Source: Candidatus Baldrarchaeum yapensis
GTDB taxonomy: Archaea; Asgardarchaeota; Baldrarchaeia; Baldrarchaeales; Baldrarchaeaceae
Length of the DNA stretch: 32,000 nucleotides
Direction: 5' to 3'
NCBI GenBank assembly: GCA_016840465.1
Contig: JAEOSH010000006.1
Location: 30,001-62,000 of the forward strand
In this document: one piece after another, positions 8,526-11,770 of the stretch
Layout: the number at the start of each line of letters is the position of its first letter
How positions within the stretch are numbered: position 1 is the stretch's first letter
Translations under genes and position numbers: made by a program
The notes under the pieces: model-generated
What the model was told of the DNA's origin: nothing
The model's database searches: none
The model's input: only the letters and a program-made list of their open reading frames with translations

Positions 8526-8685
8526 AATTAAGTGAAAATGCCATTTGTAGTTGATATTTTCGTAATTTATGGCCCAAGAAAGAGAAATAATGGAAACTCA
8601 CCTGAATTCTCAGCACCTTTATTTCACGGGATCGGATAGTATTGATGATGTTACGAAGCGATCAATCCGTGCGGTGAGAGTAACA

Positions 8686-10080
8686 ATGGACAAGTTAAGA
8701 GAGGTTCTTGACAAAATGTTTCATGCAAAATCCATAGCGATAATAGGGGCCTCTCCTCGCCCTGGAAGCGTTGGGAACCTTTTCCTAAAAAGATTAATGG
8801 ATTTCGGATATTCAGGAAAACTATTCCCGGTGAATCCCCGATATCAGGAGATATACGGGTTGAAGTGCTATCCCAGCGTAAGGGAAATACCAGAGGAAGT
8901 GGATCTAGCAATAATAACAATACCTGCAAATCTTGTTCTCAGAGCCGTCAAAGAGTGTGCGGAAAAGGGAGTGCCTGGAGTGGTTATAGTCAGTGGAGGA
9001 TTTAAGGAATTGGGAGAAGAGGGAAGAAGACTGGAGGAAGAATTGACGAGGATAGCGAAAGAAACGGGGATCAGAATAATCGGCCCCAATTGCATGGGGA
9101 TATACTGCCCGTCGTCTCAGATAACATTTCACGATAAGTTTCCAAAAGAAAGCGGGGATATAGGTTTCATTTCGCATAGCGGAGGCCTGTGTGAGCTATT
9201 TGTTCTGATGATGGGGGAAAGAGGCCTCGCGATGAGTAAGGTCATAAGTTGCGGAAACGAGTGTGATTTGAAGTTTGTAGATTTTCTAGAATATCTCGAG
9301 GACGACGAAGAGACACGTGTAATAACCGGATATGTGGAGCAAATACGAGAGGGAAGACGGTTTCTCGAGGTTGCGAAGAGAGTGACTAAAAAGAAGCCAG
9401 TGATAATATGGAAGGCCGGAAGGGGATCCGCGGGTCAGCGGGCCATCTTCTCTCACACTGGTGCACTCGGCGGATCCGATAAAATCTATAATGCCGTATT
9501 CAAACAGGTTGGTGTTCTGAGAGTCAATTGTCTAGAGGAGATTATCGACTTAGCTATGACATTCCATTGCTTATCCCCCAGAAAAGTGAGAAATGTTGCA
9601 GTGATTACTGGACCTGGAGGTTTGGGAGTTGCAATGGTCGATGCCTTCGAGTCCGCAGGCCTTCAGGTGCCTGAATTTTCAAAGGAAACGCAAGATCGCC
9701 TTAAGAAAATAATGCCACCCGTAGCGGGAGTAAAGAACCCTGCGGATCTGACTCTTGCGATTTTCGAGGATATAGATTTGACACGAAAGGCCATTGAAAT
9801 AATCAAAGAAGATGACAGGATTGACGCAATTGCGGTCGGAATAGCGGGCGCGATAGCATACCTATCTCCTGACGCGGTCAACAGAATACTAGGTGGAGTC
9901 TTAGAGGCATCAAAGGAGTCCGAAAAACCCGTTGTTGCCGTATGGCCTCATGTTGGCCGGCTATGGAGTTACGTTAGAGAATTCGTCAGATCAGGGGTTC
10001 CTGTATACACTTTCCCTGAAGACGCAGCAAGAGGGCTTAGAGCGCTTGACTGGTACTATACCCGTACATCTGCAAAATAG
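8686..10080 (+). CDS. Acyl-CoA synthetase (ADP/NDP-forming), alpha subunit
   Basis: CoA-binding KSIAIIGAS...GKLFPVNP, RIIGPNCMG, phospho-His motif SHTGAL and NPADL. Start moved to ATG 8686 (GGTGAG at 8673); the ORF track starts at 8569. No ATP-grasp beta domain. Confidence 0.92.
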   Translation: MDKLREVLDKMFHAKSIAIIGASPRPGSVGNLFLKRLMDFGYSGKLFPVNPRYQEIYGLKCYPSVREIPEEVDLAIITIPANLVLRAVKECAEKGVPGVVIVSGGFKELGEEGRRLEEELTRIAKETGIRIIGPNCMGIYCPSSQITFHDKFPKESGDIGFISHSGGLCELFVLMMGERGLAMSKVISCGNECDLKFVDFLEYLEDDEETRVITGYVEQIREGRRFLEVAKRVTKKKPVIIWKAGRGSAGQRAIFSHTGALGGSDKIYNAVFKQVGVLRVNCLEEIIDLAMTFHCLSPRKVRNVAVITGPGGLGVAMVDAFESAGLQVPEFSKETQDRLKKIMPPVAGVKNPADLTLAIFEDIDLTRKAIEIIKEDDRIDAIAVGIAGAIAYLSPDAVNRILGGVLEASKESEKPVVAVWPHVGRLWSYVREFVRSGVPVYTFPEDAARGLRALDWYYTRTSAK

Positions 10081-10125
10081 TCGAAAGTTCCTCTTACACC
10101 CCTGTTTCTCAATTACGAAGAACGA

Positions 10126-10169
10126 ATTTCATAAACTCATAAGTTTATAAACTTATGAGTTTATGAAAT
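10126..10169. repeat. Perfect 44-bp palindrome (no spacer) containing five 8-bp units
   Basis: ATTTCATAAACTCATAAGTTTA|TAAACTTATGAGTTTATGAAAT equals its own reverse complement (checked base by base). TTTATAAA at the centre (10144-10151). Confidence 0.97.
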
Positions 10170-10183
10170 CTTGGTGTTAAACG

Positions 10184-11770
10184 TTGTCCTACCTGTTACC
10201 AGTGACGGGCGAGGACTTCTTCGATCGGGAGCGAGAACTGGAGATCTTGGAAAGTGGGAAGAATATAGCACTTATAGGACCTAGAAAGTCGGGAAAGACA
10301 TCTATAATATTTGAATTTGTACGAAGACATCCCGAGAAGAGAATTGCTTACGTGTATGTTCTTTTCCAGGAAGACATCAATAGCTTAATTTCAAGAATGG
10401 CAAGATCGGTGCTAATGGTAATACTAAGAGTAAGGGATGAAGTGCCGGCGCTTGATGATCTGATATCCGCAGCTATGGACAAGGTGCCGGAAATATCGGC
10501 TCTCCTATATAATCTTATGCGACATATCAGGAAGCAAAGACATGAGGAGGCTCTCGAGGCATTAGCTAATGTTTGCGAGAAAACCGGAACCGTAATCGCC
10601 ATAGATGAGTTTCAGAACGTTTTTCAATTAGAGAAGTTCGTAGATATTCTGCGCATGATCTTACTCAAGTATAGAAAGGTACAATGGATAATAACTGGAT
10701 CCAGCATAGGAATCATGAAGGAACTGCTCATGGAACCATCATCTCCCCTTTTTGGGCACTTTGAGGTCGTATGGGTCGGCGCATTTGATATGCCCACGGC
10801 TTCAGAGTTTCTGGAGTTCTTACTAAGGCGTACCCAATTTTCGATGCCACCCGATGTGAAACAATACATTCTTGCAATTTCAGGAGGCTTCCCATTCTAC
10901 ATCTCAATCATTGTCTCAAAGTCCGTAGAGAAAGCCAAAACCAAACGAAAAGGGAAAATAGTCCCTTGGAGCGATGTCATGGAAACCTTAGAGGAAGAAT
11001 TGTGCCATCCGGAGGGCACTCTGTACAGGCATTTTATAGAAACTCTAGAGAAGGGTATGAAACGAAGAAATGTGGGGAAATATATAGACGTACTTTACTG
11101 GATCGCAAAAGGAGCGTCAGATTTAACGACCATATCCAAAAACACAGGATTCAGCCCGCAGCACTGTCTGAAAATACTCAGATTTCTCGAAAAAAGCATG
11201 TTAATAGAGAGAGTGGGGGATAGTTACTTTCTGAAGGACCCTCTCATGGACATATGGCTCAAGAGAATATATGAGTTGATGAGCCGAGAATACTCCCCGG
11301 TAAGGGACTTTACACAAATAAAACTGATGTTAAAAGAGTATTTGGACGAATTGAGAAAGCAGATTTCGATAGGTGCGGAGGCAAGGATCAGAGAATTGCT
11401 TAGAGCATTCGATGGAAGAAGGAAGATACCAATAGCTGGAGAAATTGTAAGGACCCCAACATTTCAAATGGTGTCGAGGATTACATGGAATGGTAATGAA
11501 ATAGATGTTCTCGCAATCGGGTCCGAGGTGTGGGTTTTAGAAGTAAAAACCGGGTCTGTGAAATATGAAGATCTGAAAACCTTCGCTAGGAAAATAGATG
11601 ACGCGATAAAATCCGGAGTTATTAAGCGTGTTGACAGAAGAATACTCGCATGCCTCGGTGATATTAAAGAGAATCTGGTAACAGAAGCAGATAAGCTCGG
11701 TATCAAGATTTGGAGAAAAGAGGAGATTAACAAAGCCATGCGGATTTTCGGTTATTATCCATTCCTGTAA
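10184..11770 (+). CDS. Archaeal ATPase (ATPase_2/STAND-like) + winged helix + C-terminal PD-(D/E)XK nuclease-like domain
   Basis: FFDRERE, Walker A GPRKSGKT, Walker B IAIDEFQ, ITGSS, GGFPFY. wHTH around YIDVLYWIAKG...LRFLEKSMLIER...YFLKDP. Nuclease motif E...EIDVLA...LEVK. TTG start after GGTG. Confidence 0.9.
   Translation: MSYLLPVTGEDFFDRERELEILESGKNIALIGPRKSGKTSIIFEFVRRHPEKRIAYVYVLFQEDINSLISRMARSVLMVILRVRDEVPALDDLISAAMDKVPEISALLYNLMRHIRKQRHEEALEALANVCEKTGTVIAIDEFQNVFQLEKFVDILRMILLKYRKVQWIITGSSIGIMKELLMEPSSPLFGHFEVVWVGAFDMPTASEFLEFLLRRTQFSMPPDVKQYILAISGGFPFYISIIVSKSVEKAKTKRKGKIVPWSDVMETLEEELCHPEGTLYRHFIETLEKGMKRRNVGKYIDVLYWIAKGASDLTTISKNTGFSPQHCLKILRFLEKSMLIERVGDSYFLKDPLMDIWLKRIYELMSREYSPVRDFTQIKLMLKEYLDELRKQISIGAEARIRELLRAFDGRRKIPIAGEIVRTPTFQMVSRITWNGNEIDVLAIGSEVWVLEVKTGSVKYEDLKTFARKIDDAIKSGVIKRVDRRILACLGDIKENLVTEADKLGIKIWRKEEINKAMRIFGYYPFL

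Follow-up and report, generated by a model that had tools for sequence, protein, structure and literature searches.

The window analysed here, a 32,000-nucleotide (nt) stretch of Candidatus Baldrarchaeum yapensis DNA (contig JAEOSH010000006.1, positions 30,001 to 62,000), carries an exact 44-base-pair (bp) palindrome at 10126-10169, ending 14 nt 5' of the start codon of gene P0001. P0001 (10184-11770, forward strand) begins with TTG, matches the Pfam family PF01637 and encodes a 528-amino-acid (aa) protein composed of an AAA+ ATPase_2 domain (residues 12-240; 10217-10903) with the Walker A motif GPRKSGKT and the Walker B motif DEFQ, a winged helix-turn-helix (wHTH; residues 297-350; 11072-11233) whose predicted recognition helix (residues ~325-337) begins SPQH, and a long helix joined to a PD-(D/E)xK nuclease-like domain (residues 376-528; 11309-11767), all on the forward strand. 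The palindrome, a strandless element read here as a predicted operator array, is unique and the longest of its kind in the genome, and is probably the private autorepression operator of P0001, with binding by the gene's own product predicted from sequence comparison.

The two palindrome arms (10126-10147 and 10148-10169), each 22 nt long, are 100% complementary and abut with a spacer of 0 nt. An original prediction, made from the letters of the window, had reported this exact spacer-less symmetry, five 8-bp units in register (10130-10169), the sequence TTTATAAA at 10144-10151, 33-40 nt 5' of the TTG at 10184, and a GGTG 4 nt past the palindrome end; these observations are confirmed on re-reading, and the interpretation attached to them is partly supported. 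Spacer-less palindromes with arms of 6, 7, 8, 9, 10, 11 and 12 nt number 446, 120, 32, 7, 5, 2 and 2 in the 2.27-Mb, 100-contig genome, and the next arm length represented is the 22 nt of the window element, with arm 12 as the runner-up. Counts drop ~4-fold per added arm base, and the expected number with arm 22 is ~1e-6 genome-wide. A chance origin is excluded, because the genome-wide arm-length counts stop at 12 and then resume at 22. The 44-bp sequence occurs once in the genome when up to 3 mismatches are allowed, and the element is the sole inverted repeat of at least 14 nt in the window. The statement that nothing comparable exists elsewhere holds within the window; genome-wide it does not, as most paralogues of P0001 have analogous elements.

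Authenticity of the palindrome is indicated by an independent Logan assembly of SRR14699971, which encodes an identical P0001 protein on a contig that begins exactly at window 10140, covers the right arm and reaches 8 nt past the axis. Such a contig end inside the palindrome could betray a fold-back or a chimeric join made during assembly, and the genome does hold one real artefact of that kind at the extreme end of a contig (C74:1-141), an inverted repeat whose 70-nt arms are typical of fold-back assembly. Position 10140, however, is precisely the first 31-mer not fully contained in the palindrome, a break expected for a real palindrome in a k = 31 graph. The window symmetry is limited to its 22-nt arms, both flanks hold unique, intact genes, and orthologues in other organisms have the same array at the same start-codon distance, leaving an artefact a vanishingly small chance.

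The element is best read as two 14-bp AAAC-N6-GTTT dyads joined by an AT linker, with a 16-bp period and one extra half-site per flank. Site 1 (AAACTCATAAGTTT, 10133-10146), with 6 of 7 dyad pairs matched, lies 51 nt 5' of the start codon, and site 2 (AAACTTATGAGTTT, 10149-10162) follows exactly 16 bp later; in both, the half-sites are separated by about one helical turn. The AT linker (10147-10148) forms the palindrome axis and the centre of TTTATAAA. Two half-site-like arms, ATTTCAT on the left (10126-10132) and ATGAAAT on the right (10163-10169), both read from the sequence, lie within the perfect symmetry. ATTTCAT with its adjoining AAAC resembles the GTTT-AT-AAAC junction, and this left flank is without counterpart in the bacterial orthologues, where a -10 box occupies the same place. 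Full third and fourth dyads at 10117-10130 and 10165-10178 were considered and rejected, as the matches are limited to half-sites inside the palindrome. The 8-bp periodicity that had been proposed is real as a unit, and the apparent rhythm arises because half-sites alternate with YATR tetramers, but the period kept in relatives is 16 bp (14-bp dyad plus AT); the 8-bp unit was rejected as a functional repeat, the orthologue tests favouring the 16-bp period.

A protein search revealed an orthologue clade, ~30% identical to P0001, with members in Anaerolineae, ANME-3/Methanosarcinaceae, Altiarchaeota, Pseudomonadota and other groups, and the corresponding DNA was taken from metagenomes and species genomes. 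Each orthologue stands as a single gene whose neighbours differ from case to case, often beside toxin-antitoxin, integrase or restriction-type genes. Under a relaxed test, two dyads with matching outer half-sites occur at exactly the 16-bp period in 34 of 48 distinct upstream regions, against 0-3 of 48 for other periods from 12 to 20, 0.06 in shuffles and 0 of 880 coding windows. AT is the linker in 42 of the 49 relaxed site pairs; a strict dyad test retains 11 of 48 regions, with an AT linker in 11 of 11. The upstream regions collected from orthologues reveal arrays of one layout accompanying the gene across both domains, and the proposal of a multi-site operator tied to the downstream gene through a private DNA code gains support from these comparisons.

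The individual arrays share one grammar. The Anaerolineae array reads AAACAC-N2-GTGTTT AT AAACAC-N2-GTGTTT; the Anaerolineae orthologue L075 and the window gene have a common AAAC..GTTT AT AAAC..GTTT frame and place their sites at equal start-codon distances (-51, -43 and -35), and site 1 is identical between them in position (-51) and outer half-sites. The junction GTTTATAAAC is common to the window element and the bacterial orthologues, and in orthologue L076 the array is a perfect 32-bp palindrome with TTTATAAA at its centre. ANME-3 relatives carry three AAGCAY-N2-RTGCTT dyads, one bacterial group carries three ATTC-N6-GAAT dyads, and another carries two ATGA-N6-TCAT dyads; in all these described groups the dyads are 14-mers joined by AT. 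The global 44-bp symmetry is not conserved in orthologues, whereas the per-site dyads and the 16-bp period are.

The 14 ANME sequences compared have constant half-sites and AT junctions and variable site centres, and a change in one half-site is uncompensated in the other, a signature of protein recognition rather than of a hairpin. This pattern bears on an element acting as RNA, either as a hairpin in the 5' untranslated region governing translation or mRNA stability or as a terminator-like hairpin of the acyl-CoA synthetase gene upstream, which we regard as very improbable. Transcription of the bacterial arrays, which lie between the -10 box and the Shine-Dalgarno sequence, would suit such a role, as would the strong strand folding of the window element (-18.1 kcal/mol as single-stranded DNA, z = -8.5) and its position 46 nt past the upstream stop codon. 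A 14-mer with a 2-nt centre, however, is unable to form a full stem, one orthologue (L113) repeats a dyad directly and so breaks global pairing, and several paralogue arrays (C83, C68, C55 and L070) are direct repeats unable to form hairpins. The stems are AT-rich and without the oligo-T terminator form. Rfam gave no match at the gathering score on either strand, the plant and animal microRNA-hairpin models reaching 18-32 bits against 83-171.

The lack of conserved global symmetry among orthologues bears in the same way on structural or recombinogenic DNA, for which we see a slim chance, whether as a cruciform hotspot, as a recombination site, or as the edge or insertion scar of a one-gene mobile cassette. 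DNA of this type, a perfect, spacer-less, AT-rich 44-mer, can extrude a cruciform, and the company of toxin-antitoxin, integrase and restriction-type genes around homologues would fit a mobile cassette. The element nonetheless has a single genomic copy with no second copy or terminal partner and always lies 5' of the gene, its spacing from the start codon being constant, and no homologues of P0001 were found in plasmid and phage collections. Two alternatives raised in the original prediction, a cruciform and an entry site for gene gain and loss, fit worse for these reasons: the first because the global symmetry is not conserved, the second because the sequence is unique in the genome. A terminal inverted repeat of a mobile element or a miniature inverted-repeat transposable element was rejected on the same single occurrence.

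The position of the arrays relative to promoters is clearest in bacteria. In L075, a sigma-70 promoter matching the consensus at 12 of 12 positions (TTGACA-17-TATAAT) ends 1 nt before the first dyad, and two further orthologues (L042 and L044) have 10/12 sigma-70 promoters at the same place. As read from these promoter sequences, the bacterial arrays cover about -6 to +25, where repressors classically block a strong promoter by steric hindrance. Within the 103-nt intergenic region of the window, TATA-like sequences are confined to the element, and TTTATAAA, starting at -40 from the start codon, fits the archaeal TATA-box consensus. TTTATAAA, read originally as a TATA box at the palindrome centre, is a junction between sites in bacteria too: the GTTT-AT-AAAC junction that contains it is conserved there downstream of the sigma-70 -10 box, where no TATA-binding protein (TBP) exists. 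Because the junction is kept in bacterial orthologues, TTTATAAA belongs to the layout of the predicted operator and need not be a TATA box, and it may additionally serve as one in the archaeon. Any promoter signal in the element is mirrored because the element is perfectly symmetric, and the antisense firing toward the acyl-CoA synthetase gene that had been suggested may occur.

The translation start of P0001 is supported by its orthologues, as their N-termini (MEILQRPVTGE...) align with the P0001 N-terminus LSYLLPVTGE. The Shine-Dalgarno-like GGTG (10174-10177, forward strand) lies 6 nt 5' of the TTG, and a motif of this type occupies that position in 818 of 2058 crude genes of the genome. 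The PF01637 (ATPase_2) match scores 59.8 bits against a cut-off of 33.2, and both GPRKSGKT and DEFQ are invariant in the homologue alignment. A full-length AlphaFold model with a predicted local distance difference test score (pLDDT) of 76 has 2qen and 2fna as its nearest structures, followed by Orc1/Cdc6 bound to origin DNA. The model of residues 285-528, with a pLDDT of 87, resolves three helices and a beta-hairpin wing (297-350), a long helix and an alpha/beta domain. In Foldseek, the wHTH part matches MarR/ArsR-type proteins, with additional weak profile matches to the Csa3/CasR wHTH, while the alpha/beta domain matches VC1899, Can2, NucS/EndoMS, FokI and SfsA (E = 5e-4 to 2e-2, probability ~1). 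Residues E439, D441, E453 and K455 are conserved across 18 homologues, and a weak profile match to CARF_PDDEXK reaches E = 0.001. By these models the C-terminal domain of P0001 has the PD-(D/E)xK nuclease fold, with putative catalytic activity.

Pfam DUF234 (PF03008) gives no match to P0001 at E <= 0.001, although P0001 is collinear over 458 aa (24% identity) with a DUF234 paralogue 23 kb downstream. The ATPase-wHTH-nuclease architecture first proposed is accordingly supported by Pfam, the models and Foldseek, with the DUF234 model itself standing apart. In the nearest genomes no close P0001 orthologue was found, only paralogues at 24-26% identity. As an observation on the ATPase, the family motif SPL(Y/F)GR reads PLFGH at P0001 residues 188-193 (window 10745-10762), and the usual Arg is an invariant His in all 18 members of the P0001 clade; the ATPase may work differently or act solely as a switch.

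Two-copy prediction of residues 285-528 yields a symmetric homodimer with a score of 0.64, compared with 0.00 for the best of 3 controls; runs share at least 38% of contacts, and the partner pLDDT is at least 77. Of proteins solved as one-chain pairs, 20 of 30 reach this mark, compared with 1 of 23 solved as single chains, counts that are approximate here because a self-built alignment was used. The prediction supports a homodimer of residues 285-528 mediated by the long helix (389-404) and the C-terminus (525-528), and its score may be due in part to likeness to solved PD-(D/E)xK nuclease dimers. A two-fold dimer fits the dyad sites because the half-sites are 10 bp apart.

The source genome encodes ~15 PF01637 genes, and 12 of these 15 paralogues carry a strong perfect repeat, inverted or direct, in the 130 nt preceding the domain, against ~0.1 expected per class. 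Inverted repeats were required to have arms of at least 9 and a loop of at most 8, and direct repeats a length of at least 11 and an offset of at most 30, criteria that yield 127 and 125 such repeats genome-wide. When 2061 crude genes are ranked by upstream repeat score, the four highest are all PF01637 (Mann-Whitney p = 1.5e-7), and the remaining high-scoring upstream regions belong to assorted unrelated families. The paralogue arrays all differ in sequence. One, at C12:63299-63350 (L014), 1.3 kb past the window end, is a 52-bp palindrome with 24-nt arms and a 4-nt centre ATAA, composed of three CTACT-N4-AGTAG boxes at a 15-bp period and lying 10 nt 5' of the DUF234 paralogue C12:63360-64781. 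Others comprise three TATACACCATAT(GG) units at 16 bp (C31), two AGTCATAGGGGGTATGACT units at 20 bp (C46) and palindromes with 15-bp arms (C89:14425 and C89:68317), and two Orc1/Cdc6-like genes (C51 and C67) have no such array. Paralogues C12:63360, C37 and C55 match DUF234 at 1e-17 to 1e-31. Arrays are present also at ~360-aa paralogues that consist of ATPase and wHTH without the nuclease domain, making the wHTH the common denominator of the array-bearing genes.

In other genomes the same association is found. A strict repeat criterion marks 5 of 23 PF01637 upstream windows in other Asgard genomes against 6 of 503 control windows, a perfect-repeat test that misses many imperfect or long-loop elements recognised by eye alone. 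Among the five is a different PF01637 paralogue from a genome of the same order as the source (L068, G004:C247), with a perfect, spacer-less, AT-rich 44-bp palindrome of unrelated sequence directly upstream. Inspection by eye finds such elements at 9 of 10 paralogues of an ANME-3 genome, and an Altiarchaeota paralogue carries TGACA-N4-TGTCA AT TGACA-N4-TGTCA. In the ~470-aa FINRE/DUF234 subfamily (L054, L055, L065 and L073 in Asgard archaea; L147-L151 in the ANME-3 genome G061), a nested palindrome with outer arms GTTGnAA...TTnCAAC and a AGTATAATACT-like inner part, common to Asgard and Halobacteriota, overlaps the start codon, so that the DNA element constrains the opening codons (M-x-Q-Q).

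The tandem array of P0001 occurs in the source genome only at its own promoter, indicating self-regulation rather than a regulon. An operator bound by another transcription factor, and not by the downstream gene product, would be consistent with the generic nature of palindromic operators and with the 10-mers ACTCATAAGT and ACTTATGAGT, which are common to the window array and the C12:63299 array; the genome holds 18 such 10-mers, 4 of them in these two arrays, and the sharing could reflect cross-talk, with cross-regulation by the paralogue C12:63360, or a common preference. We nevertheless consider a separate factor improbable. The array accompanies the gene into unrelated contexts and across domains where the neighbours differ, it is different at each paralogue, and the gene's own wHTH is the only component always co-inherited with it.

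Autorepression by P0001 itself would proceed as follows. A two-fold symmetric P0001 dimer would set one wHTH recognition helix on the AAAC and the other on the GTTT of one 14-bp dyad, with half-site centres 10 bp apart and hence on one face of the DNA helix, and the 16-bp period (~1.5 turns) would set neighbouring dimers on roughly opposite faces. Dimers would occupy both full dyads and probably also the weaker flanking half-sites, covering 44 bp. The covered stretch would include the TATA-like sequences and the expected transcription start, shutting the promoter and keeping a potentially harmful nuclease low and self-limited. In this scheme we infer protein binding, repression, any role of ATP, including the ATP-dependent oligomerisation first proposed, and the exclusion of TBP.

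The same geometry could instead serve a loading or assembly platform for a higher-order complex of several dimers and their AAA+ domains, with six half-sites for six protomers, functioning as a 'self' reference or nuclease activation site, or the array could be iteron- or origin-like DNA for an initiator of the Orc1/Cdc6 type. After 2qen and 2fna, the AAA+ fold comes closest to Orc1/Cdc6 in complex with origin DNA, many arrays (the ANME clade, the ATTC clade and C12:63299) have three dyads and therefore six half-sites, the window element offers two dyads plus two half-sites, and its perfect symmetry goes beyond the needs of simple repression. A platform remains a low-probability reading: the arms abut without a spacer and no AT-rich unwinding element lies between or beside the sites, ~15 arrays occur in one 2.3-Mb genome, the nuclease-less paralogues carry them too, and the Anaerolineae orthologues have just two dyads, squarely on the promoter. 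A replication origin with origin recognition box (ORB) elements was rejected on the missing spacer, the ~15 analogous arrays and their absence from the Orc1/Cdc6-like genes (C51 and C67). A broader and speculative extension of autorepression, which we rate as unlikely, takes the PF01637 AAA+-wHTH(-nuclease) proteins as a large archaeal and bacterial family of self-contained 'gene plus private DNA address' modules, with each paralogue reading its own array of 2-3 dyads and no other. In it, the array would be more than an operator and would template three dimers into an AAA+ hexamer, and ATP or an invader-derived signal would release or remodel the complex, derepressing the gene and arming the nuclease.

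The half-site changes in step with the start of the recognition helix: AAAC (window gene and Anaerolineae) pairs with SPQ, AAGC (ANME-3) with TPQ, ATTC with RTTS and ATGA with TAPE, a suggestive correspondence that spans about four clades and is confounded with phylogeny. This confounding weighs against autorepression by P0001, as do several further points. The wHTH is poorly modelled in the full-length prediction and well modelled only in the C-terminal fragment. We infer the overlap of the element with the real promoter of P0001, and the position of TTTATAAA is weakly informative on it: TATA-like hexamers of Shine-Dalgarno-led genes in the genome start broadly at -60 to -37, so that -40 falls at the proximal edge of this zone, and the profile is too broad to tell which TATA-like sequence serves. 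The perfect 44-bp symmetry exceeds the needs of binding, so something else may also act on it. Two lone exact copies of site 1 (AAACTCATAAGTTT) lie inside open reading frames at C4:2423 and C6:4187, where <0.1 would be expected for a 14-mer; these could be secondary targets.

Several known systems resemble the proposed module in part. The C proteins of restriction-modification systems, such as C.AhdI and C.Esp1396I, bind C-box operators composed of tandem dyads at their own promoter as successive dimers, tightly self-limiting the nuclease gene. The likeness lies in tandem dyads on the gene's own promoter and in an element that moves with the gene as a mobile unit. Here, in contrast, the wHTH is fused within an ATPase-nuclease polypeptide and is not a separate small Xre-type helix-turn-helix protein, the sites are 14-bp dyads with a 2-bp AT linker, a 16-bp period and up to three sites in archaea and bacteria, and no methyltransferase partner is present. 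MarR/ArsR autorepressors share the wHTH fold and palindromic sites with half-sites one turn apart over their own -10/+1 region, whereas the wHTH of P0001 lies between an AAA+ ATPase and a PD-(D/E)xK domain, the arrays are multi-site with a fixed 16-bp period, and dimerisation is predicted through the nuclease-domain helix and not through a MarR-type helical interface.

Orc1/Cdc6 with ORB elements and DnaA with DnaA boxes likewise combine AAA+ and wHTH with repeated sites beside the gene, Orc1/Cdc6 being the nearest fold to P0001 after 2qen and 2fna; P0001 differs in having no unwinding element, a private site for each of ~15 paralogues, an array on the core promoter and a C-terminal nuclease. 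Ss-LrpB of Saccharolobus solfataricus recognises three palindromic boxes set at regular intervals in the control region of its own gene and is similar as an archaeal autoregulator with an array of regularly spaced dyad boxes. Ss-LrpB is of the Lrp/AsnC family, with boxes at whole helical turns upstream of the promoter, while P0001 has another fold, a 16-bp spacing and an array atop the promoter. The closest relatives of known structure, PAB2304 (2qen) and SSO1545 (2fna), are uncharacterised PF01637/DUF234 proteins of the same family as P0001 by sequence and fold, although the Pfam DUF234 model matches paralogues and not P0001. A PD-(D/E)xK survey lists DUF234 solely as the nuclease-fold domain of AAA+ 'DEXX-box' ATPases (PMC3424549), and in searchable literature no report on the regulation, function or DNA sites of PF01637/DUF234 proteins was found.

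The palindrome most likely belongs to a known kind of element, the autoregulatory operator, in a form that is general across the family and not described in searchable literature. Its differences from the known systems are the wHTH inside an AAA+-nuclease polypeptide, the fixed 14+2-bp grammar across bacteria and archaea, and the apparently private arrays across an expanded family. PF01637/DUF234 ATPases are among the most expanded uncharacterised archaeal families, with ~15 members in the source genome and 10 in the ANME-3 genome. If each has a private operator of 14+2-bp grammar, these would provide the first concrete handle on what PF01637/DUF234 proteins bind, with ready cognate protein/DNA pairs for studies of wHTH specificity or for orthogonal repressors. 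The nuclease would then appear dangerous enough to need tight self-limitation, like restriction-modification and toxin-antitoxin modules. In bacteria the same predicted operator is paired with a sigma-70 promoter, and in an Asgard archaeon with a TATA-like centre, suggesting a cis-element that moves between transcription systems with its gene. More notable than the single element are this portability and the family-wide 'private address' pattern. Were arrays to template hexamers, the family would supply naturally occurring protein-DNA pairs that are mutually orthogonal, and its switches for single-gene defence or DNA surveillance would follow a new logic.

The gene upstream of the element (8569-10080), with its stop codon 46 nt before the palindrome, encodes an acyl-CoA synthetase of the ADP-forming type (CoA_binding plus Succ_CoA_lig). 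It has at least 8 paralogues in the genome and many in related Asgard genomes, and its nearest-genome matches are just ~40% identical. Because this gene is so highly paralogous, no orthologous empty site can be defined, and synteny is uninformative on an insertion of P0001. Elsewhere in the genome, a perfect 24-nt tandem duplication (AATTGTAAAAATTGTAGAAGTTGT x2) lies at C21:8069-8116, outside the crude gene calls. A palindrome with 16-nt arms around GGTCTATAGGGG...CCCCTATAGACC (C1:66395-66434, L156) is positioned 10 nt 5' of a DUF1847 gene, and a related copy with 11-nt arms is present on another contig (C81:632-661); the two may represent the site of another regulator or a small repeat family.

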